Shown piece after piece: positions 767 to 38,462 of a stretch of DNA of 64,000 bases (the first letter of the stretch is position 1; the number at the start of each line of letters is the position of its first letter). Position numbers and translations under genes: made by a program. The DNA is from an uncultured Planctomycetia bacterium (GTDB taxonomy: Bacteria > Omnitrophota > Gorgyraeia > 1-14-0-20-64-10), in contig CAZQXN010000009.1 of the NCBI GenBank assembly GCA_964597545.1, positions 16-64,015 of the forward strand, read 5' to 3'. The notes beneath the pieces were generated by a model. That model had not been told where the DNA came from. It saw nothing but the letters and a program-made list of their open reading frames with translations, and did not search any database.

Positions 767-807
767 GGTACCGGGTACAAACTGCCAAAATAAGTGTACC
801 CGGTACC
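767..807. repeat. palindromic element copy A: GGTACCGGGTACA-N15-TGTACCCGGTACC
   Basis: Perfect 13-bp inverted arms read directly in the sequence, about 30 bp upstream of cstA. Confidence 0.6.
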
Positions 808-3045: not shown

Positions 3046-4401
3046 ATGCCAACTCGAAAAACCATTCGATTTAAGAAAACTGAGAAATACCAGGCAGCTG
3101 TCGGCATTGTCCGCCTCCTCTATGAGGCAAGACATGAGGCCTACTTGGTGGGGGGGTGCGTCCGGGATCTGCTGATGAAGCGGACCCCTCAAGATTTTGA
3201 TGTAGCCACCTCAGCTAAGCCTGAGGAGGTCAGCCGCCTCTTCAGGCGGACGATCCCGGTAGGGGTGAAGTTTGGTGTGCAGTTGGTGCTGGTCAAGGGG
3301 GTTCCCTATGAGGTGGCGACTTTCCGGACGGATCAGGCGTACAAGGACGGCCGCCGTCCCGAGGGGGTGATCTTCTCCAACCCCAAGGAGGATGCCCTTC
3401 GACGAGATTTTACAGTAAACTCCCTCTTCTTTGATCCGAAAAAGAATCGCGTGATCGATTTCTGTTCAGGGCAGAAAGATTTAGATGCTCGCGTCATCCG
3501 GGCAATCGGCGAACCGCGCCGCCGCTTCTCAGAGGATCGCTTAAGGATGCTGCGCGCAGTCCGCTTTGCAGCGACCCTAGAATTTACCATTGAGCCCAAG
3601 ACCTTCCGGGCCATCCAGAAGGAGGCCAGGGCAATCACCGAGGTGAGCCTTGAGCGCATCCGGGATGAATTGGTGAAGCTCTTTACCGGACCCCATCCCG
3701 GCAAAGGCCTAGCACTTTTGGACGCAAGCGGTTTATTGCCATATATTCTGCCTGAGGTATCCAAGATGAAGGGGGTGCAGCAGCCGCCGGAGTTCCATCC
3801 GGAGGGGGATGTCTTTGTGCATACCAAACTCCTCCTGGACAAGCTCCCCAGCACCTCTGCGGTGTTGATCTTTGGAGCACTGCTGCACGATGTGGGCAAG
3901 CCTCCGACCTTTAAGGTGAAGGAGCGGATTCGTTTTGACGGTCATGACGTGGTCGGTAAGCGCATGGCAGAGAAGATCTGCCGACGCCTGCACTTTTCCA
4001 ATGCCGAGGGACAGGCCATTGTCGAGATTGTCGGCAACCACATGCGTTTTAAGGATGTCAAACTGATGCGCATGTCCACCCTTAAGCGGTTCTTGGCACG
4101 GCCGACCCTTGCCGAGGAGATGAAGCTTCACCGGGCGGACTGCCAAGTCAGCCACGGGGATCTCAGCAATTGGAGGTTCCTGCGCAGAAAGCAGAAGGAG
4201 TTTTCCATTCGGGAGATACGGCCCAAGCCCCTGTTGCGCGGCCAGGATCTGTTGGCATTGGGTTTTCAGACCAGCCCTTTGATTGGTGTGATCTTAAAGG
4301 CTGTTGAGGAGCGCCAACTGGAGGGGGAGTTGACCGCTAAGGCTCAAGCCCTCGCTTGGGTTAAGGAATCTTTTTCGCCGGGAAAGAGAGATATCCGATG
4401 A
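3046..4401 (+). CDS. cca: CCA-adding tRNA nucleotidyltransferase / poly(A) polymerase family with HD domain
   Basis: GGCVRDLLMKRTPQDFDVATSA nucleotidyltransferase head, RRDFTVNSLFFDP, and an HD motif (LHDVGK). The upstream extension of the ORF to 2647 overlaps the opposite-strand gene and was discarded. Confidence 0.8.
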   Translation: MPTRKTIRFKKTEKYQAAVGIVRLLYEARHEAYLVGGCVRDLLMKRTPQDFDVATSAKPEEVSRLFRRTIPVGVKFGVQLVLVKGVPYEVATFRTDQAYKDGRRPEGVIFSNPKEDALRRDFTVNSLFFDPKKNRVIDFCSGQKDLDARVIRAIGEPRRRFSEDRLRMLRAVRFAATLEFTIEPKTFRAIQKEARAITEVSLERIRDELVKLFTGPHPGKGLALLDASGLLPYILPEVSKMKGVQQPPEFHPEGDVFVHTKLLLDKLPSTSAVLIFGALLHDVGKPPTFKVKERIRFDGHDVVGKRMAEKICRRLHFSNAEGQAIVEIVGNHMRFKDVKLMRMSTLKRFLARPTLAEEMKLHRADCQVSHGDLSNWRFLRRKQKEFSIREIRPKPLLRGQDLLALGFQTSPLIGVILKAVEERQLEGELTAKAQALAWVKESFSPGKRDIR

Positions 4402-5189
4402 CGCCGAGCCCGGCCAGACCCGAGCGCCGCCCACTGATCATAGAGGTGATCGGATCCGTCCTTGCCTGGATCATGATCATAGTAGTCACCTTTATCGCGG
4501 CAGCGGTCATGGCCCTGATTTATGTTTTCACTAGGGGTTTTGATCCGCACCGCCGGCGTTGCCACCAGGTTGCTCACTGGTGGGGCAAATCATTGATTAA
4601 GCTCAACCCCACCCACCAGGTCTATGTCCATGGCCGGGAAAATATCCCCAAGGACCGGTCCGTGATCTTTATGGCAAATCACCAAAGCTACTCGGATATT
4701 CCTGTCATCTACTTTATTAATCAGGATTTCAGATGGCTGGCAAACCAGGAGTTGTTTCGCACTCCTCCGGTTGGTTGGTGCATGGGGATGGCCGGCTATG
4801 TCCCGGTTCGCCGAGGCAATCCTAAAGCGGCCAAGCGGACCGCCGAGCAGGTTCGCTCCTGGCTGGGAAAGGGTGTCTCTGTCTTTGTTTTTCCGGAAGG
4901 GACCCGTTCCCGCGTGGGGGCGTTCGGTAAATTTCTCATGGGTGGATTCCGGCTGGCGGTGACGACCGGAACCCCGATTGTTCCGGTGGTGTTAGTGGGG
5001 ACCCGGCAGCTGTTGCCCCGGGGTGGGTGGATTTTCCGAATGGGGGCAAAGCCCCAGATCCATCTCCTGCCGCCTATTGCCCCGGAATCCTCTGACTTGA
5101 AGGAGGTGCGCTTCTTGGCGAGAAAGGTGAGGGGTGCAATGGTTCAGGTTTATCGCAAGTATTTAAAGGAGGCGCGGCGCAGTGTCTAA
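4398..5189 (+). CDS. plsC: 1-acyl-sn-glycerol-3-phosphate acyltransferase
   Basis: NHQSYSD and FPEGTRS acyltransferase motifs; N-terminal TM segment. Confidence 0.8.
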   Translation: MTPSPARPERRPLIIEVIGSVLAWIMIIVVTFIAAAVMALIYVFTRGFDPHRRRCHQVAHWWGKSLIKLNPTHQVYVHGRENIPKDRSVIFMANHQSYSDIPVIYFINQDFRWLANQELFRTPPVGWCMGMAGYVPVRRGNPKAAKRTAEQVRSWLGKGVSVFVFPEGTRSRVGAFGKFLMGGFRLAVTTGTPIVPVVLVGTRQLLPRGGWIFRMGAKPQIHLLPPIAPESSDLKEVRFLARKVRGAMVQVYRKYLKEARRSV

Positions 5190-6312
5190 GGGATGTACAG
5201 CTGCGCTCATGGTGGCGGCCAGCCAAAACAGCGCAGATCTCTTCTATGCCACGCGCTTTAGGGCGCCGGACCCCTTTATCTATGTTGAGATTGCAGGTAA
5301 AAAGATTCTGGTACTGTCTGACCTGGAGATTGATCGAGCCAAGAAGGAGGCTCGGGCCGATGAAATCCTTTCCCTCTCCAAGATTCAGGCGGTGTTGAGC
5401 AAGGGGGATCTTCCACGGGCCGGAACCTTAGAGGTGATCGACCACCTCTTTAAGGAGCGGGGCGTTACCTCGGTGCGGGTGCCGAGCGCCTTCCCGGTGT
5501 CCCTGGCTGACCGCCTGCGCAAAAAGAAATATGCCCTCAAGGTCATTGAGGAGCCCTTCTTTCCTGACCGGATGATCAAGGCCCCTGATGAGGTGGAATC
5601 GATTCGACAGACCCTGCGCAAGGCAGAGTCGGCCCTGGAGGGTGCCTTGGAGTTTATCGGGAGTGCGGAGATTCGAAAAGAGGAGCTGTGGGTTGAGGGT
5701 GAACCGTTAACCTCAGAGTTGGTGCGCCGGCGCATGCAAATTGCCCTCTTGAATGAGGGGTATTGGGCCCGTGAGGTCATTGTGGCCGGCGGCGCGCAGG
5801 CTTGCGATCCTCACAACACAGGCTCCGGAGCCCTTAGGGCCCATTGGCCGATCATCCTGGACCTGTTTCCAGTTTCCCTGGAGAGCGGTTATTGCGCTGA
5901 TATAAGCCGGACTGTTGTTAAGGGTAAGTCTTCCGAGAAGGTCAAGCGGATGTACCAGGCGGTCCAGCAGGGGCAGGAGCTTGCTTTCATGCAATTGAAA
6001 GACGGCATTGACGGACGCGTGGTGCACCAGGCCATACTGGACCATTTTGAGGCTCAGGGATTCCCGACGCGGGAAGAACAGGGCCGGATGGTCGGTTTCT
6101 TCCATGGGACCGGCCATGGGTTGGGGCTGGAGGTGCATGAGCCTCCCCGCATCAGTCCCGTAGAGGAGGCCCTTAAGGCTGGGCAGGTGGTTACAGTGGA
6201 GCCCGGCCTCTACTATCCTGACGCCGGCGGCATCCGGCTAGAGGATGACGTGTTGATTACCGAGACCGGCTGCGAGAACCTGACTGTCCTGCCGAAATTC
6301 CTGGAGCTATAA
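5182..6312 (+). CDS. Xaa-Pro aminopeptidase / M24 family metallopeptidase
   Basis: Creatinase-like N-domain followed by M24 metal ligands (HGTGHGLGLEVHE, VEPGLY). Confidence 0.8.
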   Translation: MSKGCTAALMVAASQNSADLFYATRFRAPDPFIYVEIAGKKILVLSDLEIDRAKKEARADEILSLSKIQAVLSKGDLPRAGTLEVIDHLFKERGVTSVRVPSAFPVSLADRLRKKKYALKVIEEPFFPDRMIKAPDEVESIRQTLRKAESALEGALEFIGSAEIRKEELWVEGEPLTSELVRRRMQIALLNEGYWAREVIVAGGAQACDPHNTGSGALRAHWPIILDLFPVSLESGYCADISRTVVKGKSSEKVKRMYQAVQQGQELAFMQLKDGIDGRVVHQAILDHFEAQGFPTREEQGRMVGFFHGTGHGLGLEVHEPPRISPVEEALKAGQVVTVEPGLYYPDAGGIRLEDDVLITETGCENLTVLPKFLEL

Positions 6313-6315
6313 CCC

Positions 6316-6366
6316 GGTACCGGGTACAGTTTTCAACAAGCGGTGTTAATAAGTGTACCCGGTACC
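6316..6366. repeat. palindromic element copy B: GGTACCGGGTACA-N25-TGTACCCGGTACC, followed by a T-tract and an extra GGGTACCGG half-site
   Basis: Read directly; sits between the convergent 3' ends of the M24 peptidase (+) and leuD (-). Confidence 0.6.
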
Positions 6367-6394
6367 AGTTTTGGGTACCGGTGTTGGGGTTGCT

Positions 6395-6997
6395 TTAGCG
6401 CTGGGGGCTGTGCTTGGCTTCAAAGGCGGTGATGACCGCCTCTTGTTTCAGAGTCACAGCGATGGGGTCGAGCCCGCGGACTAAGAGCTCCTTAACGGCC
6501 GGATCGATCTCGAAGCTAAAGACAAGTTCCTCATCCAGGTGCAGGGTGACCCGCTGGTGATCCAGAGCCACCGTGGCCTCTAGCCCCTGGGTGCGTCCTA
6601 CCCTCTGAAAGATTTCATCTACCTCAGCTTCTTCTAGCGTTACCGTCAGCAGCCCATTCTTGGCGCTGTTGTTGCGGAAGATGTCAGCAAAGCTTGGTGC
6701 AATGACCACACGGAAACCCGCCTGCTGAACTGCCCAGACGGCGTGCTCCCGAGAGGAGCCGCAGCCAAAGTTGTTCCGGACCACCAGAATGGAGGCTCCC
6801 TTAAAGCGCGGAAGGTTCAACGCAAACTCCGGATTGGGTTTGCCCTTTGAAAGCTTCGCCCAGTCATAGAAGAGGGATTTTCCAAAACCGGTCTTCTTGA
6901 TCGATTTTAAGAACTGCTTGGGGATAATCTGGTCGGTATCCACATTGGACCGGTCTAGGGTAACCACGAGGCCGCGGTGGCTCTTAAAGGGCTTCAT
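6395..6997 (-). CDS. leuD: 3-isopropylmalate dehydratase small subunit
   Basis: 200 aa of LeuD/aconitase swivel-domain sequence; its start overlaps the leuC stop (ATGA). Confidence 0.9.
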
Positions 6998-8403
6998 CGG
7001 TTCTTACCCCATTTGCGGATGTCCACAAAGTGTCCTTCCACAGCTGCCGCTGCCGCCATCTCAGGGGAGACCAAGTGAGTTCTTCCTCCCTTGCCCTGGC
7101 GGCCTTCGAAGTTGCGGTTAGAAGTAGAGGCGCAGCGCTCCCCGGGTTTCAGCTGGTCTGGGTTCATCCCTAAGCACATGCTGCAGCCCGAGTGTCTCCA
7201 GTCAGCTCCAGCACTCTTAAAGATCTTGTCCAATCCCTCTGCTTGCGCTTGGGCGCGCACAGGCTCTGAGCCGGGGACCACCAGGACCTTAACACCGGGG
7301 GCAATCTTGTGTCCTTTAAGCATTTGTGCGGCGGCCCTTAAATCCTCGATGCGGCCGTTGGTGCAGCTGCCGATGAAGACGGTGTTGATTCTAATCTGTT
7401 CCATTGGGGTGCCTGGAGTCAGCCCCATGTAGCTCAGCGCCTGCTCCACGTCCTTGCGGCTGTAGCCGGGAACCTTTCCTGGGTCAGGGACGCGGCCTGC
7501 GACATCGATTACCATCCCAGGGCTTGTTCCCCAGGTAATCTGAGGAGCGATCTCGAAGGCATCCAGGGTGACGGTTTTATCGAATAGGGCGTTCGAATCG
7601 CTGGGCAGCGTGCGCCAAAAGGCGAGCGCCTTCTCCAGAGCTGCACCCTTGGGCGCAAAGGGACGATCTCCAGAGGCGATGTATTCGAAGGTGGTCTCGT
7701 CAGGGGCGATCATGCCGGCACGGGCTCCAGCCTCAATCGACATGTTGCAGATGGTGGTTCTTGCCTCCATGGAGAGGGCGCGAATTGCAGAACCGGCATA
7801 CTCCAGGACATGACCGGTGCCGCCGGCCGCTCCAATGGTGCCGATGAGCTTTAAGATCATGTCCTTGGCCGTGACGCCAGGGGAGAGGGAGCCGGTAAAT
7901 TCTACCCGAAAAGTCTTAGGCTTGGTTTGAGTCAGGCACTGGGTGGCCAGGACGTGCTCTACCTCAGAGGTTCCAATCCCAAAGGCCAAAGCTCCGAAGG
8001 CACCGTGCGTAGAAGTATGGGAATCCCCGCAGACCAGGGTGATGCCGGGCAGGGTCAGTCCCAGCTCAGGGCCGATGATGTGGACAACGCCCTGACGGTC
8101 GCTGGATAGGCCATAAAGCGTAATGCCAAAATCCCGACAGTTCTTCTCCAGGGCCTCGATCTGGGCGCGGGAGGTCAAATCACGAATGTTGACCCGGTCA
8201 TCGGTCGGAACGTTGTGGTCCATTGTCGCAAAGGTGAGCTCCGGTTTGCGGACACCCCTTTTATTCAGGCGCAGCCCTTCAAAGGCCTGAGGGGAGGTCA
8301 CCTCATGGACCAGGTGGCGGTCGATGTAGAGCAGGGTCCCTCCGCCGGGCTGGACCGCCACTGCGTGGGCCTGCCAGATCTTTTCAAACAGGGTTTTCGG
8401 CAT
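6994..8403 (-). CDS. leuC: 3-isopropylmalate dehydratase large subunit
   Basis: Aconitase-family large subunit; N-terminus [15 protein letters not shown] parallels E. coli LeuC. The start was chosen at the internal ATG (8403), since the longer ORF runs to 8535. Confidence 0.9.
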
Positions 8404-9759: not shown

Positions 9760-10113
9760 ATGAACGAGTATCTCGGCGTCTTTATTTCCCTAGTTTTTGC
9801 AGCCCTGGTTGCGGGCGGTTTTCTCCTTTTGGCGGCCCTCCTGGGCCCCAAAAAACCTTCTGCGGCCAAGTCAGAACCCTTTGAGTGCGGAAAACCCCCG
9901 TTTCATCTGCCTGCCGGTCGTTTCCCTGTGAAGTTCTATTTGGTTGCCATGCTCTTCCTTCTCTTTGATGTGGAGCTGGTTTTCCTCTTTCCTTGGGCCG
10001 TGGTCTATCGACAGCTCGGTTGGTTTGGTTTCCTGGAGGTGCTGGTCTTCCTGGGAATTGTGGTGATCGGATTTGTTTATGCCTGGAAGAAGGGGGCGCT
10101 GGATTGGGAGTAA
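9760..10113 (+). CDS. nuoA: NADH-quinone oxidoreductase subunit A
   Basis: Small 3-TM protein with the conserved (F/Y)ECG and FLLFDVE(L/V)VFL(F/W)PWA NuoA/ND3 motifs. Confidence 0.9.
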   Translation: MNEYLGVFISLVFAALVAGGFLLLAALLGPKKPSAAKSEPFECGKPPFHLPAGRFPVKFYLVAMLFLLFDVELVFLFPWAVVYRQLGWFGFLEVLVFLGIVVIGFVYAWKKGALDWE

Positions 10114-26937: not shown

Positions 26938-27356
26938 ACGTTTCCGGGGGCCATGAGCGGCCGGTAGGCGGCCTGGAGTTGTATGCTTGGCTCTTCATGC
27001 GCATCTCCGGGGTGCTCCTACTCCTGCTGGCCTTGGGGCACCTGTTTATCATGCATGTCTTTAACTCCATTCAGGTCATTGATTACGATTTTGTAGTCAA
27101 TCGCTACCAACATCTCTTTTGGCGGTTCTATGACTTGGCACTGTTGTGGCTGGCGCTGCTGCATGGGCTCAATGGGTTTCGAATGATTGCAGATGATTAT
27201 TTGCGCCCAGGGGTGCGGGGGATCGCCGTGCGCCTCCTCTTTGCCGGAGGGTTCTTTTTTCTGGTTTTGGGGAGCTGGGTGATCCTTGCTTTTCAACCGG
27301 CCTCCCCATTATCGGTACCGGGTACACTGCTGGAAAGTGTACCCGGTACCTTTTAA
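26934..27356 (+). CDS. sdhD: succinate dehydrogenase hydrophobic membrane anchor subunit
   Basis: 3-TM protein with a His ligand (LALLHGLNGFR), in the operon position of sdhD. Its last 14 codons are encoded by palindromic repeat copy C. Confidence 0.55.
   Translation: MNVSGGHERPVGGLELYAWLFMRISGVLLLLLALGHLFIMHVFNSIQVIDYDFVVNRYQHLFWRFYDLALLWLALLHGLNGFRMIADDYLRPGVRGIAVRLLFAGGFFFLVLGSWVILAFQPASPLSVPGTLLESVPGTF
27314..27350. repeat. palindromic element copy C: GGTACCGGGTACA-N11-TGTACCCGGTACC followed by TTTT
   Basis: Read directly; it lies inside the sdh operon at the sdhD/sdhA junction. Confidence 0.6.
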
Positions 27357-27360
27357 GGCT

Positions 27361-29106
27361 ATGGCTACCTATCGTTTTGACGGGTTGATCGTGGGTGCGG
27401 GCGGGGCTGGGCTCATGGCTGCTCTACAGGCCAGCCAAGGGTCTTCTTCAGATTCCGGTCCTAAGATTGCGGTCCTTTCGAAGCTCTATCCTACCCGCTC
27501 CCATACCGGCACAGCCCAAGGGGGAATCGGGGCTGCCCTGGGCAATTCCGAGGAGGATCGCTGGGAGTGGCACGTCTTTGATACGGTCAAGGGATCTGAT
27601 TATTTGGCCGATCAAGATGCGGTGGAGACGATGTGCCGCGAGGCGGTCGACACTGTCTATGAACTTGAGCACATGGGGTTGCCATTCTCCCGCACCCCTG
27701 AAGGCAAGATTGCCCAGCGGCCTTTTGGCGGGCACACCAAAGAATTCGGAAAGGCCCCGGTCCGCCGCTCCTGCTATGCTGCGGATCGAACCGGCCACAT
27801 GATCCTGCAGACCCTTTACCAGCAGTGCATCAAGCAGGGGGTCACTTTTTTTGATGAATTCCATGTGGTGGATCTTTTGGTTCAGGATGGGGTGACCTGC
27901 GGTGTCGTGGCCGTTGAGATTGCCACCGGCGAGCTCCACACCTTTCATGCCAAGGCGGTTCTCTTTGCCACCGGTGGCTGCGGCCGGATGTTTAAGATTA
28001 CCTCCAACGCTTTGACCCTCACCGGCGATGGCATGGGGGTGGTGCTTGAGCGGGGTCTCCCCTTAGAGGATATGGAGTTCTTCCAGTTTCACCCGACCGG
28101 CATCTACAAGATGGGGATTTTGATCACCGAAGCAGCGCGCGGGGAAGGGGGGATACTGCGCAACAAGGGCGGCGAGCAGTTCATGGAGCGTTATGCGCCC
28201 ACCCTTCTGGATCTAGCTCCGCGGGACATGGTCTCCAGGGCGATCACCCAAGAGATCAGAGAAGGGCGCGGAATTGATGGAAAGGGGTATGTGACGCTGG
28301 ACCTTACACACCTTGCCCCTAAATTGATTCAGGAGAAGCTTCCGGACATCTCAGAGTTCGTCAAAACCTATATCGGAATTGATCCTACCCGGCAGCCCAT
28401 ACCGGTCCAGCCGACGGCCCATTATGCGATGGGGGGAATCCCCACCAATGCAGATGGCGAGGTGGTCGTAAACGGTCAACAGCAGGTCATGCCCGGGCTC
28501 TATGCTGCCGGGGAGTGCGCCTGCGTGTCAGTGCATGGAGCCAATCGCTTGGGAACCAATTCCCTGGTGGACATTATTGTCTTTGGGCGGCGCGGCGGCA
28601 GGGCGCTGCGTGCCTTCGCTGAGAAGACCGATTGGCCCAGGCTGCCAAAAGACCCCCAAGGCCAACTCAGAGGTCGATTAGAGAAGCTGCGCAGCGGCGC
28701 AGGCTCTGAATCTGCCGCCCAAATTCGCCAGAGCCTTCAGACAGAAATGATGGATCACTGTTCGGTTTTAAGAACTCAGAAGGGTTTGGAACAGGTGCAG
28801 GGGGTGATCCGACAGCTTAAAGAGCGCTACAGCCATGTTCAGCTGCAGGACAAGGGAATGAGGTTTAATTCGGAGCTCTTGGAGGCATTGGAGTTGAAGC
28901 ATCTGCTTGGCCTTTCCCAGGTCACGGTTGCCGCTGCTCTGGCTCGGACCGAATCACGCGGTGCCCACTACCGGGAGGATTTCCCAGAGCGGGATGATGC
29001 CAAGTGGCTTAAGCACTCCCTCTGCCGCCTGGAAGGTAATCAAGTGTCGATGGAGAGCCGCCCGGTTGTGATCACCCGCTTTGAGCCCAAGGAGCGGAAG
29101 TACTGA
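27361..29106 (+). CDS. sdhA: succinate dehydrogenase / fumarate reductase flavoprotein subunit
   Basis: FAD-binding GAGGAGL, covalent-FAD His region (SHTGTAQGG), RSHTV/active-site HPTG and RGEGG motifs. Confidence 0.9.
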   Translation: MATYRFDGLIVGAGGAGLMAALQASQGSSSDSGPKIAVLSKLYPTRSHTGTAQGGIGAALGNSEEDRWEWHVFDTVKGSDYLADQDAVETMCREAVDTVYELEHMGLPFSRTPEGKIAQRPFGGHTKEFGKAPVRRSCYAADRTGHMILQTLYQQCIKQGVTFFDEFHVVDLLVQDGVTCGVVAVEIATGELHTFHAKAVLFATGGCGRMFKITSNALTLTGDGMGVVLERGLPLEDMEFFQFHPTGIYKMGILITEAARGEGGILRNKGGEQFMERYAPTLLDLAPRDMVSRAITQEIREGRGIDGKGYVTLDLTHLAPKLIQEKLPDISEFVKTYIGIDPTRQPIPVQPTAHYAMGGIPTNADGEVVVNGQQQVMPGLYAAGECACVSVHGANRLGTNSLVDIIVFGRRGGRALRAFAEKTDWPRLPKDPQGQLRGRLEKLRSGAGSESAAQIRQSLQTEMMDHCSVLRTQKGLEQVQGVIRQLKERYSHVQLQDKGMRFNSELLEALELKHLLGLSQVTVAAALARTESRGAHYREDFPERDDAKWLKHSLCRLEGNQVSMESRPVVITRFEPKERKY

Positions 29107-29904: not shown

Positions 29905-32900
29905 ATGCGCATGTTCAACGCCAGACGAATAATCCACATATTGCTTATCCTTGCCTTTTCGTGCACAGAGGCACAGGCTCTGCGACAGGTCAGTCCCAAG
30001 CAGTCGGATGGGGTCCGGCAGGAGTTAGCCGCCGGCTTGGAGGAGACAGCAACTCAGAACGTTACAGAACTCATCCACCGCGAGGGCAAAACAAACGCTC
30101 TTTTTCCGGGTACCCGGGTGGTCAATCTTATCGCCGAGGAGGATGACCCTGTTTTTATTAGAGGTGTTCAATACGAAGCAGAAGTGAATAATGGACTGCG
30201 CAGGCTGAATCAGACAGGGTTTTTCTGGGTGACGAATGGTTCTGGGCGGCTTGAGCTTGGCGCTACCTCAGAACCGATCAGATACGGGAAGATCATATAT
30301 CTTCCCAGGGACATCTATTTTAGAGTTGTTCCCAACTTTGGCCCTGGGCAGCCCCCGCTAGAGCTTCTTCAGATCTTTCCGTGCCGCCCTGAGTCATTTC
30401 GGCTTTCCAAAAGCGTTACCCCAGAACAAGCCAACACCGCAGAGGCATTGGAAGGCTGCCTTGGCTACTCATCGGGCGAGGTTGACGATGTAATCCTCAA
30501 TTTCTCGCCCAAAATGGATGGGCTGGATGTTGTCCGCTACCGCAGCTCAAGCACCAGACCCACCCTCATGCTGGATGCTTCTGAGCACCCGAGTGTCCTT
30601 GTTGCCATGTCCGGCACAGCCAGGGTCAAAGGCAAAGTCAACACGCAGGATTGGGAAAGAATCCTCACAGAGGGTGATGTGCGCCGCTTGCCTGTTTTTG
30701 ATGGTCCCTTCTCGATTTCCGGTGATCGGATCATCGTTTTGGCCATTGGACCTGAAGATTCTGTTGGGCCCAAGACCCAAGATGGGCTGAACGCCTTAAT
30801 TAAAGTTGCTCCTCCGCCGACTCAGCCGCTTTCATTCCGAATGGCAGATGTTTATGTTGTAGGGGGTGCTGGCGACATCCCTTCCTCGACTGAGCGCTTG
30901 CCATCTGAAAGAGGTGATTTTGCTGCTGCAGATCTTGGAGGGGGTCAGGCGGACTCGACATCAATCGATCAAAGAGCGCTGGCTGATGCCGAAGAAGACG
31001 ATGAGGGTGGTCCAGCCGCAGAGGAAGAGGAAGGAGAGGCAGCACTTAAAGCAGCTCGCAAGACTGCTGCAAGAAGACCATCCGCAAAAGCCGGGGAGCC
31101 CTCTGTGGCGAAGGCAACCAAGCAACCAAAAAGGAAAGCCCCCAAGAAGAGCTTTGAAGAAAAGGCTGGTTTGCGCAAGATGCTTCGCAAAAAAGGCAGA
31201 TACGGCGGAGTTGCAGTAGGCTTCACCGAACCGCTCGAGTTCTTAAACGGCATGGAGGTGGCTGAGCAGCACATCGCGCACCGCCAGCTTGCTGCCGCGC
31301 TCTCCGCCGAGGAAGGAATAGCGTCTTTACACGTTTTAAGTCCCGCCAAGGGCGGGGAGCAATGGCTAGAGTTTGCGATTCCAAAACGGCAACCCGAGGA
31401 GCTGATTGCTTCTGTTCGGGATTTGTTGCCGCAGGGGCCTGAATATATCCTGCTGGAGGCAGATGAGGGGCACTTCTGGCTCATGCCGCAGGCTGTTTTC
31501 TGGAGGCCTTCAACGGAAGGCCAAAGGCAGAGGTTCAAAGAGCTCGTTAGGCGGACTGAACTCGGAGAAGGAAGGAGGCAGGTACAGGCTTTCCAGAGCC
31601 TGCTCAATCGGTTCTCTGAAGAAGGGGGTGTGCCCCTCACAGGGGGTGTGCGGATGCGTGTTTCCTCCTGGTATAAATTTTTTCTTTTCAGCTCAGCGCT
31701 TCAACCTGGTACGCGGGTAGGGTCTGTGCTTGCGCTACCTAGTCAATATAAACACCAAGCAGTTCATGTCGTGCCGAGGCAAGAGGAAGGAAGGCTGGTC
31801 TTGTCTGTTTATGGATTGTCCCCTTTTCGGCTAATCCACTCTTATAGCCGCGATGCTGATTCCGGATACTACACTTTGGCAGGGACCGTCATAGGGGACA
31901 AGGTTGCCTCCCTGCCAGATGCATCCCAGAAGGCTTTTCCTGCAGTCGACGAGTCGCGCGGCTATAAACGCTCTGAGCTTTCGAAGGTGACCGGTTTGCC
32001 AAACCCCTTGCTCAACCGCCTAGAGAAACGAGGGGTGGTTTATCTGGACTCCGCTCAATTGGTACCGGGCTGGCTGGTTGCTCTATTGGCCGGGGCTTCG
32101 AGGGAGGCGGACAAGAAGATATACCCCATCAGCGGTCTTACTCTTTTCCTGAGTCTCACCAGGCACGCTGCCGATCGGGCGTGGAGGGTCTCAGGGCTGC
32201 CTGCGATTGAGCAGCCCGGAGAGCAGAAGATGCTAGCGCGCGAAACAGTTTTGGAGATCGTGCTTACCTATCGCTTTAAAGACAAGGTAGAGGAATTGGC
32301 CGGCCCTTATCTGGATTGGCGGGCGGCAGCCAAAAGGCTGAAAATAAAAAGTACCGTACTAAAGTCCTGGCCGACCGTTGCTCAGAGAGTTCCAGTCTCT
32401 AATGGATTTCCTCTCTGGGTGGCCTCTGGTTCGGTGCACCGGATTACCCACCTTGGAGTTGAGGGGCTTCTTGAGGCGGAGCAGGAGGCGGTGCAAGCCG
32501 CAGAAGAACAAGGCAAGAGAGTCCTTTTTCATGCCGCTCAGAAGCGCTTTCCTGACGATTTGGTTTCAAAGCAGATTCTGTTGTATCGGCGGATGTTCCG
32601 GGCAGCGAAGGAACTTGGCATCCCTCTGGAGGTGCTCGAGCACCCCCTTGCCCCGGTTCAAACGCGCTACATCGTTCCCCAGGGACGCTTGGAAGAGATC
32701 TTTCATGAGGTTGATCACCCGATGGCCTGGACTCCTAGGAATATTCAGACGGGGTCCAGCTATATCATGAGCTCAGCTGCGCGGGTACTGGGCTTTAGAA
32801 ACGGAACTGTGGCGAAAAACTGGCTCACGGGCGAGCATCCCGAAGTTAACCTTGCGCAGGAGCTTGGGCATTCTTGGGTGTCGGGCGCCGATCTCATTCG

Positions 32901-35900
32901 CGTTGCAGAGGAAAAAGCTTCTTCCTCCGGCCAAGAAGAGGGTGGCCTGGAAGAGACAGCAACCCAGAATGTTTCGGAGTTGCTGTACCGGGAGGGCCGG
33001 ATAAGCGCTCTGGCTCCGGGCGTCAAGGAGTTCAACCTTATTGCCAAAGCGGGCGACCCTGCCTTCGTAAGGGTGGTCCGATACGAACCTGGGGAGGGCA
33101 ATGGGCTGCGCAGGCTAAACCAGCCAGGACTTTTTTGGGTGGCAGGTGGCTCTGGGCAGCTTGAGTTGGGTGCTACCTCAGGACCAATCTCTGCAGGGCA
33201 GATCATCTATATGCCCAGCGATGTCTATTTTAGAGTAATTCCCAGCGCTACTCCCGGGCAGCCCCCCTTGGATCTTCTTCAGATATTTCCGCGCCGCCCA
33301 GATTCACTTTGGCCTCCCAAGGGCGCTTCCCCCGAGACAGTCAACAGCGAAGAGGCATTGGCAGGCTGTCGCCTCTACTCCTGGGGCGGACCTGAGGATA
33401 CAATCGTCAATTTCTCGCCCAAGATGGATGGGTTGGATGTCGTCCGCTACCGCAGCTCGAGCGTCACACCCACCCTCATGCTGGATGCCTCTGATCATCC
33501 CAGAGTCCTTGTTGTTATGTCTGGTAGGGCTCGGATTCGGAGCCAGGTTAACCAAGATAACTGGAACAGGCTCCTGTCAGATGGAGACTTAATCCGTCTT
33601 CCGGCGACTGAGCACCCCCTCTCGATCTCCGGAGATCCAGTCACCCTCCTCGCCATCGGACCTAAAGATTCCATTGAGCCCAAGGCAATCGAGGCGCTGG
33701 GCAGGTTGACCGCCGCCCATCCGCCAGTTCAGCCGATGACATTCCAAGTGGTGGACAGCTTTGTTGCGGGAGGTGTTGGTGATTTTTCCGGGCGCGGAAG
33801 TGAGCGCATGCCCTCTGAGACAGGTGATTTTGCTGCAGTCGACCTTGCGGGGGGGCGGGCAGATGTGGCAGCGGTCGATCAAAGAACGCTGGCAGATGCC
33901 GAGCAGGAAGATGACTCTGCGGCAACCGAACCGGACAAAGAGGAGGAGAAGGCACTCAAGGCAGTTCGCAAGACTGCGGCAAAGAAGCCATCCAAGAGAG
34001 CCAGTGAACCTTCTGCAGCGAAGCCAACAAGGAAACCAAAGAAAAGAGTTTCCAGGAGGAGCTTCGAAGAACAATCTGGAGTACGCAAGATGCTTCGTAG
34101 GACTGGGCGTTCCGGCGCAGTCGCAGACGGTTTCACCAAACCGCTTGAGTTCTTAAACGGTATGACGGTCGTTGGGCAGCATATTGCCCACCGCAGGCTT
34201 GCCGTCGCCCTTTCTTCCCACGAAGAAATGGTTTCTCTGCACGTTCTCAATTCCGTCAGGGGCAGAGATCAATGGATGGAATTTGCGGTTCCAGAAAAGC
34301 AGCGAGGGGAGTTGTTCGCCTCTGTTCGTGGCCAGCTATTACCGGGTTTTGAGTATATCTTGCTGCAGGCAGATGAGGGCCATTACTGGCTTATGCCGCA
34401 AAGTGTTTTCTGGAGAACCTCTGCGGGGGGCCAAAGAGACAAGCTTAGAAAACTCCTTAAGCTTGCAGAGTTTGAGGAGGGGGAACGCCAAGAAAAAGGC
34501 CTTGATCGGTTGCTTAAGCAATTTTCCGAAGAAGAAGGCGAACCACTAACGAGAGGGGTTCGGATACGTGTTACGGCCGATTACCAAGCCTACCTCTTTA
34601 AGCTGGCGCTGGAGAGTGGCCGCTATTGGTCCGCCTACCTCACCGTGCCCATTGCTTACCGGCATCAAGTGATTCATGTTGTGCCGAGGTTGGGGGAGGA
34701 GGGGGTGGTGTTGAATGTTTACGGACTGTCTCCCTACAGGCTGGTTCAATCTTTTAGTTGGAATGCGGGCTCCAGAAGATACAAGGCACTTGAAACGGCC
34801 TTAGAGAGGCGGATTGCATTTGCGCCGGATATCGCCGAGAAGAAACTTCCTCAGATTGAAGCGGCGCGCGGATATGAGCGTTCTGAGCTTGCGAAGGTGA
34901 GCGGATTGCCCAACAGACTGCTTAGCCGATTGGAGAGTCAGGGTATTGTGTATCTGGATTCCTCTAACTTGGTGCCTGGGTGGCTGGTTGCATTATTGGC
35001 AGAGGCTTCTAGGGAAGTGGACAAAGCCGAATATCCCGCTTCTGCTCTAAGCGTTTTGTTGGGGCTTGAGAACGAGACTGCGGTGCAGTTGTGGAGGCGT
35101 TCGGGGCTGCCCAGTATCCGGGCGTCTCGGCAGCGGAACTTGCTGTCGCGTGAGGTGGTTCTGGAGCTTGTGATTACGCGGCGCTTCCAGGATGAAGTAG
35201 AGAAATTGGCCGGCCCTTATCAGGAATGGAGAGCAGCAGGCAAGAAGCTGTCGATCGGTGCCCACCCCCTTTCTTCTTGGCCGTCTATCGCCCAAACCGT
35301 TCCTGTCTTTAAGGGTTTTCCGCTTTGGGTGAAATATAGGTCATGGCACCGTCTCACTCACCTTGGGTTTGAGGGGCTTGTCGAGGCGGAGCAGGAGGCA
35401 GTGCAGGTTATTCAGGATGCGGGTAAAGCGGTTCTCTGGAGTGCGGTTCAGGATCGTTACCAGAGGAAGCCGCGCAGTAATTTCCTCGCACAGTATTCCC
35501 GAGCTTTTCAAGCGGCAATGGAACTCAATATTCCCGTTGAGGAGCTTGAGCACCCCCTTGCTCCGGTTCAAACGCGGTATGTGGTTCCCCAAGAACGTCT
35601 GGATGAGGTCTTTAATGAGGTGGATGAGCCGACAGCTTGGACCACAAAGACAGTCCTATCGGAGGGATGGTATGCGCTCTCATCTGTCAGGCAGGCGCTG
35701 GGATTGACTGAAGGGGCTCTGAAGCGACGGGTCTACGCAGGAGCCCTTGGTGATTTCAAAAAGATAGAAGGCAAGCTTTGGGTATCGGGAGCCGGCATCC
35801 TTCAGTATGCCGAGAATCAACCATCCCGCTCCGGCCTCGAGGAAAACAACCTGGATGCGCGGGTCGCCCGGATGCAGCGGCGCCTTGGCCAGGAAAGAGC

Positions 35901-36249
35901 AGATGTCGTTCTGGGCCCAGTCTACGGTCTTTTGTCAGACTACCACTCTTCCCGTATCCATGATGCTCCGAAGCTTTTCGACCAATATGTGGATTTGGTC
36001 TCTGAAACCTTCTCCGACGATGCGGGGTCTGTCTTCTGGGTCACCTTGCAGACCTTGCGCCACCTAGAGACCCTAGACGGCATCGCCTCCCCAGAAACAG
36101 TCCTTCGGCAAGCCCTAGAGCAGTTCAGCGGCCCCCAAGAACCTCTCAACTGGGACAACTTCTCCCAATTTGAACCCCCCTGGAATTCCTTCAAGGGTAT
36201 ACTCTCTTGTGCGAGAATTTGGACCCTCAGGGCGTCGCCAGAGCGCTGA
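29905..36249 (+). CDS. giant (2114-aa) protein with a signal-peptide-like N-terminus and two tandem ~970-aa modules; function unknown
   Basis: Single uninterrupted ORF. N-terminus MRMFNARRIIHILLILAFSCTEAQA has the n/h/c regions of a signal peptide with an AQA site. Residues 44-1013 and 1014-1980 are clearly homologous to each other. I recognise no characterised family. Confidence 0.8.
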   Translation: MRMFNARRIIHILLILAFSCTEAQALRQVSPKQSDGVRQELAAGLEETATQNVTELIHREGKTNALFPGTRVVNLIAEEDDPVFIRGVQYEAEVNNGLRRLNQTGFFWVTNGSGRLELGATSEPIRYGKIIYLPRDIYFRVVPNFGPGQPPLELLQIFPCRPESFRLSKSVTPEQANTAEALEGCLGYSSGEVDDVILNFSPKMDGLDVVRYRSSSTRPTLMLDASEHPSVLVAMSGTARVKGKVNTQDWERILTEGDVRRLPVFDGPFSISGDRIIVLAIGPEDSVGPKTQDGLNALIKVAPPPTQPLSFRMADVYVVGGAGDIPSSTERLPSERGDFAAADLGGGQADSTSIDQRALADAEEDDEGGPAAEEEEGEAALKAARKTAARRPSAKAGEPSVAKATKQPKRKAPKKSFEEKAGLRKMLRKKGRYGGVAVGFTEPLEFLNGMEVAEQHIAHRQLAAALSAEEGIASLHVLSPAKGGEQWLEFAIPKRQPEELIASVRDLLPQGPEYILLEADEGHFWLMPQAVFWRPSTEGQRQRFKELVRRTELGEGRRQVQAFQSLLNRFSEEGGVPLTGGVRMRVSSWYKFFLFSSALQPGTRVGSVLALPSQYKHQAVHVVPRQEEGRLVLSVYGLSPFRLIHSYSRDADSGYYTLAGTVIGDKVASLPDASQKAFPAVDESRGYKRSELSKVTGLPNPLLNRLEKRGVVYLDSAQLVPGWLVALLAGASREADKKIYPISGLTLFLSLTRHAADRAWRVSGLPAIEQPGEQKMLARETVLEIVLTYRFKDKVEELAGPYLDWRAAAKRLKIKSTVLKSWPTVAQRVPVSNGFPLWVASGSVHRITHLGVEGLLEAEQEAVQAAEEQGKRVLFHAAQKRFPDDLVSKQILLYRRMFRAAKELGIPLEVLEHPLAPVQTRYIVPQGRLEEIFHEVDHPMAWTPRNIQTGSSYIMSSAARVLGFRNGTVAKNWLTGEHPEVNLAQELGHSWVSGADLIRVAEEKASSSGQEEGGLEETATQNVSELLYREGRISALAPGVKEFNLIAKAGDPAFVRVVRYEPGEGNGLRRLNQPGLFWVAGGSGQLELGATSGPISAGQIIYMPSDVYFRVIPSATPGQPPLDLLQIFPRRPDSLWPPKGASPETVNSEEALAGCRLYSWGGPEDTIVNFSPKMDGLDVVRYRSSSVTPTLMLDASDHPRVLVVMSGRARIRSQVNQDNWNRLLSDGDLIRLPATEHPLSISGDPVTLLAIGPKDSIEPKAIEALGRLTAAHPPVQPMTFQVVDSFVAGGVGDFSGRGSERMPSETGDFAAVDLAGGRADVAAVDQRTLADAEQEDDSAATEPDKEEEKALKAVRKTAAKKPSKRASEPSAAKPTRKPKKRVSRRSFEEQSGVRKMLRRTGRSGAVADGFTKPLEFLNGMTVVGQHIAHRRLAVALSSHEEMVSLHVLNSVRGRDQWMEFAVPEKQRGELFASVRGQLLPGFEYILLQADEGHYWLMPQSVFWRTSAGGQRDKLRKLLKLAEFEEGERQEKGLDRLLKQFSEEEGEPLTRGVRIRVTADYQAYLFKLALESGRYWSAYLTVPIAYRHQVIHVVPRLGEEGVVLNVYGLSPYRLVQSFSWNAGSRRYKALETALERRIAFAPDIAEKKLPQIEAARGYERSELAKVSGLPNRLLSRLESQGIVYLDSSNLVPGWLVALLAEASREVDKAEYPASALSVLLGLENETAVQLWRRSGLPSIRASRQRNLLSREVVLELVITRRFQDEVEKLAGPYQEWRAAGKKLSIGAHPLSSWPSIAQTVPVFKGFPLWVKYRSWHRLTHLGFEGLVEAEQEAVQVIQDAGKAVLWSAVQDRYQRKPRSNFLAQYSRAFQAAMELNIPVEELEHPLAPVQTRYVVPQERLDEVFNEVDEPTAWTTKTVLSEGWYALSSVRQALGLTEGALKRRVYAGALGDFKKIEGKLWVSGAGILQYAENQPSRSGLEENNLDARVARMQRRLGQERADVVLGPVYGLLSDYHSSRIHDAPKLFDQYVDLVSETFSDDAGSVFWVTLQTLRHLETLDGIASPETVLRQALEQFSGPQEPLNWDNFSQFEPPWNSFKGILSCARIWTLRASPER
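30034..32943 (+). repeat. module 1 of the intragenic tandem duplication (970 codons)
   Basis: Begins GLEETATQNVTELIHREGK and ends ...SSSGQEEG; aligns colinearly with module 2. Confidence 0.8.
32944..35844 (+). repeat. module 2 of the intragenic tandem duplication (967 codons)
   Basis: Begins GLEETATQNVSELLYREGR and ends ...SRSGLEE; roughly 55-60% identical to module 1 by eye. Confidence 0.8.
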
Positions 36250-38411
36250 CGCACTCTGACTTCACAGACAACATTCGATTGCCAAACCTCACCACCAAAA
36301 AACCCGACTGGCGCTCCATCCAGCTTGATGGAAGGCGGGCTGTCGCAATCTCAAGACTGCTCGGCTTCTTGCCGGAACGGCACCGCTACGCCATGCTGCA
36401 TTCCGGCAGGGCAATGATCATTGTCCCGCAGGCCACCCTTCTTCAGCCTGCCCCGGAGGAAGAAATCAAGGCTTTTCGCCAACAGGTGCTGCAAGCCCTC
36501 CATGGAGCTCAAGCGGATCGGGACGAAGCGGTGAGGAGATTGCTTCACACCTATCAGAATCCCCTGTGGGGAGCAGAGGGCATTGATGTGCGCGTTCCGA
36601 GCACCGCATCGGGCCTCTACCTCTTTTATCTGGGGGCGGCCATGGGCGTACCCAAGAGTGTGATGATCAATTTCTCACGTACCCGAAGGAATCAGGTGAT
36701 GCGCCTGATCCCCTGCGTCCTGGACGGGGAGTTGTATTTGGAGGCGTACCAGCACGCCCCTTTTCAATTTGACCGGAGAGTGAAGTGGAATAAAAAATCG
36801 CTGTCTTTCAGGGGTGTCAGCGGACCGATTCAGACTTACAGCCGTTTTGGCCAGTCTGCCGATATCCTTCGAGCTCTGGATGGAATTGATCCGGATTTGG
36901 ATTATGAGCCCGACTTTGAACGACTCCAACAACTGACGGGCATTTCTCGTGAGGTCCTGGATGAACTGGGCAGCCGGGGCTATCTGTATCGGAATCGATC
37001 CGGAAAGATCCCAGGCGATTTGGTGCGGCTTCTGGAAGGCGAATCCAAGAAATACAAGCAGAAGTGGTATACCGCCGGCATCTTTACTCGTGGCCTGGAC
37101 CAATCAACAAGGGACGTTGACGGTCTTCAGCACCGGGCTCGCTTCGGCGTCCTGGAGGAGCCAGGCAGTTCCAGGCGGTACAGCCGAAACTCTGTCTTGG
37201 AGATCATCTTGACCAAGAAACTTGAGGAATGGATCAAGAAGGAGGTGGGGGGTTTTGTTTCAAGGGAGAAGGTTTTGTCCGATGACAAGGTGGGCATCAA
37301 CGCCAGGCGCTTAAGGCGCTGGCTCAAGCAGAGTAGATCACCCTTCCTAAAGAAAGCTGGAGTTCCTGTGTGGGTCACTTTGGATGAGAGGCACTACCTG
37401 ACCGGCAAGGGTATTGAGGCCGAGAAACGGGCCTTGGCGAGAATCCCTGCAACCCATACTATTCTTGCCGATGCCATGAGGCGAGCGTACACATTTGATG
37501 ATGATCTGCACTTTGCCGACTTTTACTTAGAGGTTTTTCGGGCTGCGCAGGAGCTCGGCAAGGAGTGGAAGTTCTGGGAACACCTCTTTGCTCCGATACT
37601 GACCCTGGTTGTTGTGAAAAAAAGAGATCTAACAGCCATCTTCAAGGAGGCGGAGCATCCTACAGCTTGGAGCGTTTCTCAGATCAAGCCGGACCGCTAT
37701 TACGGCAATGGCACCGTTGTACGCTTGAGCGGTTATAAGCCCAATACAGTGTCGAACCACTTTTCGAATAACAAGATAGCAAGCGTGGTAGCTCTCGGGC
37801 GGCACTGGGCTCCGGGCCCTGAGGTTATCCGCCTTGCCAGAGCGCGTGAAGCATCTGCCGGTTTAGAGGAGCTGTCGCCAGAAATTGTAGAGATTTTGAG
37901 GGAGCAGCCGGGGGCTGCGGTTACCTGGGCTGTTATTGAGCCGGCCGGCTTGGAGGATCTGCCAAGTACGGTAGCCATACAAAGAATTCCGGCTGACACG
38001 GGAGAGGCTCCAGATATACCTAGGCAACCCCTTGTGATGGTGCAGAAGGGGCTCCTGCCGGAGGAGGTGCTGCGGCAAATGGATCAGGGGGGCTGGGCTG
38101 TTCGGTTGCTTCCGGAGAAGCCAGGTGGAGATGGGCTTGAGCATGCCGTGGCAGTTGGCTTAGAGGAACAGGAAGGGCCTCTTTTGGTGATCGTGGAGGC
38201 CTCCCTTCAAGATGCGGTGAGAAGGCTGACGGCCTATGACAGGGTAACGGCTGTGGTGCTGGAACAGGGTATGGCACAGCTGCTTGCGCCGGGAAATCTA
38301 ATCTTATTCCTCAAGCACACCTTGGCCCATCTTCCGGGGCGCTTCCTCGATTTACAGATCTTTTTAGCGGCCGGCCAAGAAGAGCTTTTTGCAGTGGCAG
38401 ACCAGCTGTAA
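36207..38411 (+). CDS. 734-aa paralog of the C-terminal half of the giant-protein module; function unknown
   Basis: Shares colinear blocks with the modules, for example FRAAQELGKEWKFWEHLFAPILTLVVVKKRDLTAIFKEAEHPTAW versus FRAAKELGIPLEVLEHPLAPVQTRYIVPQGRLEEIFHEVDHPMAW, plus the SAGLEE junction motif and HTH-like segments. The start is either the TTG at 36207 (overlapping the giant ORF by 43 nt) or the ATG at 36393. Confidence 0.65.
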   Translation: MCENLDPQGVARALTHSDFTDNIRLPNLTTKKPDWRSIQLDGRRAVAISRLLGFLPERHRYAMLHSGRAMIIVPQATLLQPAPEEEIKAFRQQVLQALHGAQADRDEAVRRLLHTYQNPLWGAEGIDVRVPSTASGLYLFYLGAAMGVPKSVMINFSRTRRNQVMRLIPCVLDGELYLEAYQHAPFQFDRRVKWNKKSLSFRGVSGPIQTYSRFGQSADILRALDGIDPDLDYEPDFERLQQLTGISREVLDELGSRGYLYRNRSGKIPGDLVRLLEGESKKYKQKWYTAGIFTRGLDQSTRDVDGLQHRARFGVLEEPGSSRRYSRNSVLEIILTKKLEEWIKKEVGGFVSREKVLSDDKVGINARRLRRWLKQSRSPFLKKAGVPVWVTLDERHYLTGKGIEAEKRALARIPATHTILADAMRRAYTFDDDLHFADFYLEVFRAAQELGKEWKFWEHLFAPILTLVVVKKRDLTAIFKEAEHPTAWSVSQIKPDRYYGNGTVVRLSGYKPNTVSNHFSNNKIASVVALGRHWAPGPEVIRLARAREASAGLEELSPEIVEILREQPGAAVTWAVIEPAGLEDLPSTVAIQRIPADTGEAPDIPRQPLVMVQKGLLPEEVLRQMDQGGWAVRLLPEKPGGDGLEHAVAVGLEEQEGPLLVIVEASLQDAVRRLTAYDRVTAVVLEQGMAQLLAPGNLILFLKHTLAHLPGRFLDLQIFLAAGQEELFAVADQL

Positions 38412-38415
38412 TGCC

Positions 38416-38445
38416 CGGTATCTGTTGATAAGTGTACCCAGTACC
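38416..38445. repeat. degenerate palindromic element copy D (CCCGGTATCTGTTGATAAGTGTACCCAGTACC)
   Basis: The right arm and spacer (TGTTGATAAGTGTACCCaGTACC) match copy B (TGTTAATAAGTGTACCCGGTACC); the left arm is decayed. Confidence 0.4.
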
Positions 38446-38462
38446 TGGTACTATCCTACGTC

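Follow-up and report, generated by a model that had tools for sequence, protein, structure and literature searches.

Palindromic GTAC-box hairpins in an Omnitrophota genome are probably REP-type mobile elements moved by a RAYT encoded elsewhere

A contig from an uncultured member of the Omnitrophota carries four copies of a short palindromic repeat, which raises the question of whether these are binding sites for a regulator, RNA structures that evolved at each place, or copies of a mobile DNA element. The whole stretch of 64,000 nucleotides that was analysed is called the window here, and positions are those of its forward strand. The original prediction had listed three copies with perfect 13-bp arms and a decayed one, and both the sequences and the positions were confirmed. 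The inverted-repeat arms, GGTACCGGGTACA / TGTACCCGGTACC, are 13 nt long and perfect in three of the four copies, and the fourth (D) is decayed.

Copy A, 767-807: hairpin element with arms at 767-779 and 795-807 and a 15-nt loop.
Copy B, 6316-6366: hairpin element with arms at 6316-6328 and 6354-6366 and a 25-nt loop with an inner stem.
Copy C, 27314-27350: hairpin element with arms at 27314-27326 and 27338-27350 and an 11-nt loop; the effective stem is 15 bp.
Copy D, 38411-38452: decayed element with a badly decayed left-arm remnant at 38411-38422 and the loop tail TGTTGATAAG.

The elements are 37-51 nt long with perfect stems of 13-15 bp, and in copy B an extended imperfect hairpin covers 6311-6371. 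Each arm does not merely contain GGTACC but is in itself an 11-bp palindrome, GTACC(G/C)GGTAC, so that the layout of an arm is a self-complementary double-GTAC box, G-GTACC-S-GGTAC-A. Strict inversion of the outer bases and of the centre base (G..G..A / T..C..C) is seen in each of the intact copies A, B and C, and the spacing from box centre to box centre is 24, 28 or 38 bp. In copy D the right arm (38433-38445) has one mismatch and is overlapped by a second perfect palindrome, AGTACCTGGTACT, at 38440-38452. Partial boxes that overlap via one common GTAC were found at 6310-6321 and 38434-38451. The spacer tail predicted to be common to copies A, B and D is indeed there (ATAAGTGTACCC). The arms contain no stop codon in any of the six frames.

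With up to two mismatches allowed, 7 arm matches were observed in the window; 100 shuffles that preserve dinucleotides gave 0.51 +/- 0.59 and never as many as 7, so the repeat family is not a product of chance. The window has 7 occurrences of the 11-bp core box GTACCNGGTAC, where base composition predicts 0.06. Copy A was found again in the Logan assembly SRR8146443, at 100% identity over 1277 bp, and since this assembly is independent the copy is no assembly artefact. The word GTAC itself is rarer than expected across the window (113 observed and 240 expected from base composition, or about half), a shortage that could come from restriction avoidance and that makes the GTAC-rich repeats more conspicuous. 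An unrelated inverted repeat with 19-nt arms that are 89% complementary and 3 nt apart (GGCTCCCCTGTATCGAAAC / GTTCCGACACAGGGGAGCC) sits at 59151-59191, within long ORFs on both strands.

The first description of all copies as intergenic is not exact. Copy A has an ACT-domain gene (296-694) on one side and cstA on the other, both assigned by Pfam. The start of cstA is at 831, as called in the Logan assembly, or at 840, and thus 24-33 nt past the copy; the predicted place upstream of cstA stands, and the single distance of 30 bp is replaced by this range. Copy B was correctly placed between two convergent 3' ends, those of an M24 peptidase gene (stop codon 6310-6312) and of leuD (end 6395). Copy C is at the sdhD/sdhA junction, within the 3' end of the sdhD ORF, to which it supplies the last 14 codons (...SVPGTLLESVPGTF*), with the stop codon (27354-27356) 4 nt past the element. 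Copy D follows a 734-aa ORF and ends 11 nt ahead of a HAD hydrolase gene (start 38463); its left-arm remnant touches the ORF's stop codon (38409-38411), with one base (38411) in common. The copies are therefore intergenic in the case of A and B, but C lies inside an ORF and the remnant of D shares a stop-codon base.

The 734-aa product has no Pfam match, and its ORF follows one of 2114 aa, the two together spanning 29905-38411. In a related Omnitrophica MAG an ORF of ~2000 aa without a recorded Pfam hit is found after sdhB (L022, 12573-18608). The relative's locus L021, described below, also matches a second site of the window, 32944-33524, at 82%, which suggests internal repeats or paralogy.

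Comparison with relatives bears on the age of two copies. The closest named homologues belong to Candidatus Omnitrophica MAGs, with 76% identity for SdhA and 63% for the peptidase, which makes this phylum the probable source of the window. The metagenome contig Ga0118719_1003019 (L039 and L021) is colinear with window positions 1297-30665 at ~90% nucleotide identity, and no exact box was found in it, only a single 11-mer with one mismatch in 28 kb. At the peptidase/leuD junction the gap is 21 nt in the relative (L039, L040) and 82 nt in the window, copy B included, and the last codons of the peptidase gene were replaced with the insertion (LEL* in the window versus LELD* in the relative). At the other site the sdhD stop codon of the relative (L021) abuts the sdhA start codon and copy C is absent; the window has ~60 extra bases there, and its sdhD encodes 140 aa compared with 126 aa in the relative. 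Copy C is absent also from the more distant Omnitrophica MAG (L022), where again the sdhD stop abuts the sdhA start. Both copies, B and C, are thus recent insertions, missing where the ~90% identical relative has the orthologous sites. Two of the four copies arose after the split from that relative, with arms that are still perfect, and the perfection of all six arms of the intact copies suggests a recent spread.

The sdhA start codon beside copy C is an ATG after TTTTAAGGCT (window 27351-27363), while in the relative it is a GTG right after the sdhD stop (L021, ~9990-10003). With the insertion, then, the sequence of the junction and the codon at which sdhA starts were exchanged too. No target-site duplications or flanking direct repeats were visible at any copy, as expected of a Y1/HUH mechanism but not of a DDE-type MITE. 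Beyond the loop tail the flanks of the copies are unrelated to each other, with no conserved bases outside the arms. The extra half-site noticed after copy B is real, but it does not belong to the element: the motif GGGTACCGG at 6373-6381, just 3' of the copy, aligns with AGTACCGGG in the relative that has no insertion (L039, ~5030-5040), and it is therefore ancestral and outside the inserted element. A GTACCGG(G) motif was already present immediately 3' of the place where copy B inserted, and a preference for targets that resemble the arm may be behind this.

The family had been taken as lineage-specific, and this part of the description did not hold. One genome per species was scanned for the exact pattern (185,579 species, 596 Gb), and the exact arm pair was found at 16 genome loci, often with several copies per genome, and at 15 more loci from a metagenome scan; the chance expectation in 596 Gb is estimated at about 0.004. 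The hosts in the genome scan are Halanaerobium, Halobacillus, a Bacillota MAG, Lachnospiraceae, Gaiellales, two Omnitrophota MAGs and two Planctomycetota MAGs. All 26 arm bases are identical in at least six phyla, and the G+C content of the metagenome-scan loci spans 28-72%. In GTDB representative genomes the copy number of the exact 13+13 pattern is low, at most about 4 per genome, and no match to it or to the N-centre pattern was found in 2.9 million viral contigs (0 each).

What is lineage-specific is the loop, which is mostly palindromic too, so that a conserved outer stem surrounds a variable inner stem-loop. An orthologous copy after hisIE in two Halanaerobiales-like genomes (76-81% protein identity) has kept 26 of 26 arm bases and only 8 of 12 loop bases, and its flanks have diverged. 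A covariation count of the arm pairing fits both arm models, every box being self-complementary, and a count of centre-base pairs carries a bias from the choice of loci. Positions deep in long stop-free stretches are held by 33% of 36 exact hairpins compared with 80% of random positions. Since the arms are free of stop codons in six frames, genes can tolerate the element in frame, examples being the sdhD tail and leuS of the Omnitrophota MAG HK-STAS-OMNI-5. In that MAG (JACKFM010000001.1) an exact hairpin at L004:5634-5670 is in frame within the leucyl-tRNA synthetase gene (ORF 4510-7008); the residues it encodes there, VPGTPSHNVPGT, fall in a variable editing-domain loop that reads PGEP---LPEP in the T. 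thermophilus LeuRS. Boxes also form tandem arrays, which reach 15-19 boxes. The array in a locus of the metagenome Ga0206852 (L028:2473-2976) consists of 15 exact boxes and further degenerate ones, all pointing the same way and repeated every 26 nt, and here as well as in the array of L034 the centre base takes all four values.

No gene for a RAYT (REP-associated Y1/HUH tyrosine transposase) is present in the 64-kb window, and none was seen in the Omnitrophota loci that have the exact hairpin (L004, L006 and L013), each of which covers only 8 kb. All ORFs of the first 16 loci were compared with each other. With one syntenic pair and generic domains (GGDEF, ABC ATPases) excluded, the only family common to unrelated loci was Y1_Tnp (PF01797, IS200-like), and a gene of this family directly adjoins the boxes in a Bacillota MAG (L009) and in Halobacillus (L002). 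In L009 there are two boxes upstream of the gene (4618 and 4643; gene 4736-5332) and four downstream (5339-5427). In a metagenome locus (L034, Ga0206852) seven tandem hairpins with a 51-nt period (4336-4703) precede the gene (4777-5349), which is followed by one hairpin (5352-5387). A Y1_Tnp gene bracketed by boxes was thus found in 3 of ~31 pattern-selected loci, with about 0.08 expected for a single-copy gene by our estimate.

The RAYT-type protein has 2053 homologues, many of which are named 'REP element-mobilizing transposase RayT' in the source. Through these homologues, one exact box and fragments were found beside the RAYT gene of H. praevalens (L044). In an Anaerolineaceae locus (L018) there are 22 matches to GTACCNGGTAC at up to two mismatches in 6.6 kb, mostly variants of the form GTRCCWGGYAC, and hairpins of this form flank the RAYT gene on both sides. 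Boxes of the form GTRCCWGGTAC are upstream of the RAYT gene in two further loci (L045 and L046), and the RAYT loci of Thermoanaerobacterales (L019 and L020) showed weak, distant box variants only. In five or six other genomes, then, the same or related boxes flank a RAYT-type gene. This is the layout of a REPtron, a RAYT/TnpA_REP gene flanked by REPs (PMC6006769, PMC3333891).

In the alignment of these proteins H60 and H62 (HxH motif) are invariant and Y102, in a GHxFQGRY motif, is nearly so. A single RAYT sequence gave no match in a PDB search, whereas the best PDB match of a 15-sequence profile was the E. coli TnpA_REP (4ER8, E 5e-6), with the IS200/IS605 TnpA at ~0.07. The best NCBIfam model is NF047646, 'REP-associated tyrosine transposase' (E 1e-15 to 1e-20), although the clade scores 57-71 bits, under the curated cut-off of 80. 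As judged from these profiles, the associated protein is closer to TnpA_REP than to the TnpA of IS200/IS605. The proteins of L034 and L009 are only ~34% identical to each other.

The RAYT gene is between uvrA and uvrC both in the Bacillota MAG (L009:1788-7300) and in Halanaerobium praevalens DSM 2228 (L044:7071-12468), with 63% protein identity. The same single-copy position in two genomes suggests long vertical inheritance; RAYTs, unlike insertion sequences, typically keep to one fixed position (PMC5581495). Homologues on plasmids belong to a longer subclass of about 290 aa, have at most 41% identity and have no boxes nearby, and therefore no transfer vehicle is visible.

Together, the insertion polymorphism, the lack of target duplications and the presence of the same boxes beside RAYT genes elsewhere make 'REP-like', one of the two classes offered by the original prediction, the right one. 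The four sites are most probably copies of a non-autonomous mobile DNA hairpin of the REP/REPIN type, moved via a RAYT that is encoded elsewhere. The 64-kb window contains no RAYT gene, and a RAYT in the source genome, its mobilising of these very copies and any effects on transcripts are inferred.

The models for the mechanism are TnpA_REP and the TnpA of IS200/IS605 (PMC3479197, PMC3333891). The outer stem of 13 invariant bp encloses the variable inner loop or stem of 11-25 nt, and the element would fold in single-stranded DNA, as with the E. coli TnpA_REP and the IS200/IS605 TnpA. The RAYT, encoded once elsewhere in the chromosome, would recognise, cut and rejoin the element and so place copies at new sites, mostly gene ends, without target duplication. 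Once inserted, the element would be transcribed as a very stable RNA hairpin. The insertion can incidentally alter gene ends and operon junctions (the sdhD tail, the peptidase C-terminus) and possibly the stability of mRNA 3' ends. A secondary effect is conceivable where a stable hairpin now stands between sdhD and sdhA in place of the relative's abutting stop and start codons, and where hairpins stand at the 3' ends of two genes.

The best surviving alternative accepts that the element is mobile but has it moved without a RAYT, either as a MITE by a DDE transposase that reads the 13-nt arms as terminal inverted repeats, or by recombination or template switching at GTACCGG-like sequences. The lack of a RAYT gene in the window would agree with it; the position of copy B directly beside the ancestral GTACCGGG motif could mean homology-guided insertion, and the GTAC-sharing partial boxes at 6310-6321 and 38434-38451 could stem from slippage. 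We nevertheless consider it unlikely, given that no target-site duplications are visible, that no IS with such termini was found in the window or in any of ~45 loci, that an element of 37-51 nt is far shorter than typical MITEs, and that the sole gene recurring beside the boxes, in five or six genomes, is the Y1/HUH RAYT.

The second class offered at the outset, operators for a dimeric regulator, fared much worse. In this reading a dimeric or tetrameric transcription factor would bind the 11-bp palindrome GTACC-N-GGTAC, with cstA, sdhAB and the HAD hydrolase gene as its regulon. Each arm is a perfect palindrome of operator size, and three of the copies are less than 35 nt upstream of start codons (cstA, sdhA, HAD). 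The box also resembles AGTACCnGGTACT, the core of FapR-type sites, and copy D contains exactly that string; a FapR operator was rejected because of the insertion polymorphism and because no fatty-acid genes are nearby. However, the ~90% identical relative has the same genes but neither copy B nor copy C beside them at the orthologous sites, and copy B is between two 3' ends. The spacing (24, 28 and 38 bp) is not fixed and shows no helical phasing, and the strict inversion of the outer and centre bases is a property of a hairpin unit, not of independent sites. Neither the tandem arrays of 15-19 boxes nor the copy in frame within leuS looks like an operator, and the 31 loci have no target gene in common except the RAYT. 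We regard operators as very improbable.

The folding of the copies bears on the REP reading as well as on the remaining alternative. The elements were said to form very stable RNA hairpins, and the intact copies do so in prediction, at -24.6 kcal/mol for A (z -3.9), -33.5 for B and -30.4 for C (z -5.7); the statement does not extend to copy D, which folds no better than shuffles (-10.7 kcal/mol, z -0.2). Folded as single-stranded DNA the intact copies reach -14 to -17.6 kcal/mol, with z of about -6.3 to -7.0 (copy A: -14, z -6.6). A terminator scan, which asked for a GC-rich stem-loop directly followed by a T-run, called 0 of the 4 copies, a short TTTT being present after copy C only. In a consensus scan no promoter-like site was found at copy A, and a promoter-like match on the minus strand (27336-27308) overlaps copy C. 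Another promoter-like sequence, a consensus match only, overlaps copy D at 38425-38454 (TTGATA, 18 nt, TG-TACTAT), 9 nt upstream of the start codon of the HAD hydrolase gene. No Rfam family matched at its gathering score anywhere in the window.

That the copies are intrinsic terminators or mRNA-stabilising 3' hairpins, selected site by site, would agree with the stability of the RNA hairpins, with copies B and D right after stop codons, with the TTTT after copy C and with the effects on termination and mRNA stability reported for E. coli REPs (PMC6006769), but it is hardly credible: identical arms of 26 nt at unrelated sites and across phyla make independent local evolution impossible, no copy was called as a terminator, copy A is upstream of a gene and copy C inside an operon, and effects on transcripts are more plausible as a secondary outcome of insertion.

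The proposed RAYT-moved hairpin can be set beside the known systems. Almost all of the characterised REP-RAYT systems come from Proteobacteria, in which the REP families are specific to a species or genus and carry a GT[AG]G tag. The reference systems are those of E. coli (YafM, PDB 4ER8) and Pseudomonas (Nunvar 2010, PMC2817692; Bertels & Rainey 2011, PMC3116915; Ton-Hoang 2012, PMC3333891; Quentin 2018, PMC6006769). The elements described here share with them the short hairpin repeats mostly at gene ends, the Y1/HUH gene bracketed by the same repeats (as a REPtron, in other genomes), tandem clusters included, the lack of target duplications, the presence or absence that varies among close relatives, and a RAYT that keeps its chromosomal place (uvrA-RAYT-uvrC in two Halanaerobiales genomes). 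Unlike them, the elements have a self-complementary GTAC at the foot, twice per arm, where known REPs have the GT[AG]G tag (PMC3733652, PMC6006769); the arms begin G-GTAC-C, and neither GTAG nor GTGG occurs in the elements. The same arm sequence recurs in at least six phyla and with RAYTs of only ~34% identity, in contrast to the known REP families, each of which is confined to a species or genus. Instead of mainly Proteobacteria, the hosts belong to Bacillota, Chloroflexota, Omnitrophota, Planctomycetota and Actinomycetota, and the RAYT clade scores under the NCBIfam cut-off for RAYTs.

The IS200/IS605 family has in common with these elements an HUH/Y1 enzyme family that recognises hairpins in single-stranded DNA, and insertion without target duplication. 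It inserts beside a short target motif related to the element end, to which copy B beside GTACCGGG may be a parallel. It differs in that the hairpins studied here are dispersed alone and are not the ends of an IS that carries its transposase, and in that the associated gene is apparently single-copy, at a fixed position, with a profile closer to TnpA_REP. The GTAG- and CGTC-tagged repeat superfamilies (Di Nocera et al. 2013, PMC3733652) are also small palindromes spread over many phyla, some of which flank RAYT genes, but neither tag is in the window elements, and the words GTAC and GGTAC are absent from the main text of that paper. MITEs such as the Correia elements of Neisseria are likewise small non-coding inverted repeats at gene ends that are able to alter transcripts, but they measure 100-400 bp and have terminal inverted repeats derived from DDE-type IS and target-site duplications, none of which was found here.

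In the REP papers PMC3733652, PMC2817692 and PMC6006769 with its supplements there is no REP of the GTACCNGGTAC type and no entry for Halanaerobium or Omnitrophota. A literature search with the 11-mers returned primers and tRNA sequences only, and no description of the box in the searchable literature; the sole match to a bacterial 'repetitive sequence', a Neisseria Correia element, is unrelated.

We also propose, as possible rather than probable, that these repeats form an undescribed class, 'GTAC-box REPs', either ancient or travelling horizontally, whose arms have stayed the same in at least six phyla and with cognate RAYTs that are ~34% identical. If so, the class would have an unusually rigid DNA-recognition code, with a self-complementary GTAC foot in place of GT[AG]G. 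The element could land in frame in genes and may home to GTACCGG-like targets, and the three perfect copies within 64 kb would mean that the window's genome is undergoing an active burst.

As regards the window, the finding mainly clarifies a point: what appeared to be the site of an unknown regulator is probably a mobile repeat. In annotation such hairpins should be masked rather than read as operators or terminators; their insertion changes both the ends of genes (the C-terminus of sdhD, the stop codon of the peptidase) and the junctions within operons. A REP class common to Bacillota, Chloroflexota, Actinomycetota, Planctomycetota and the uncultivated Omnitrophota would be relevant to how RAYTs read DNA, and to whether REP-RAYT pairs are inherited vertically over long times or move across phyla.
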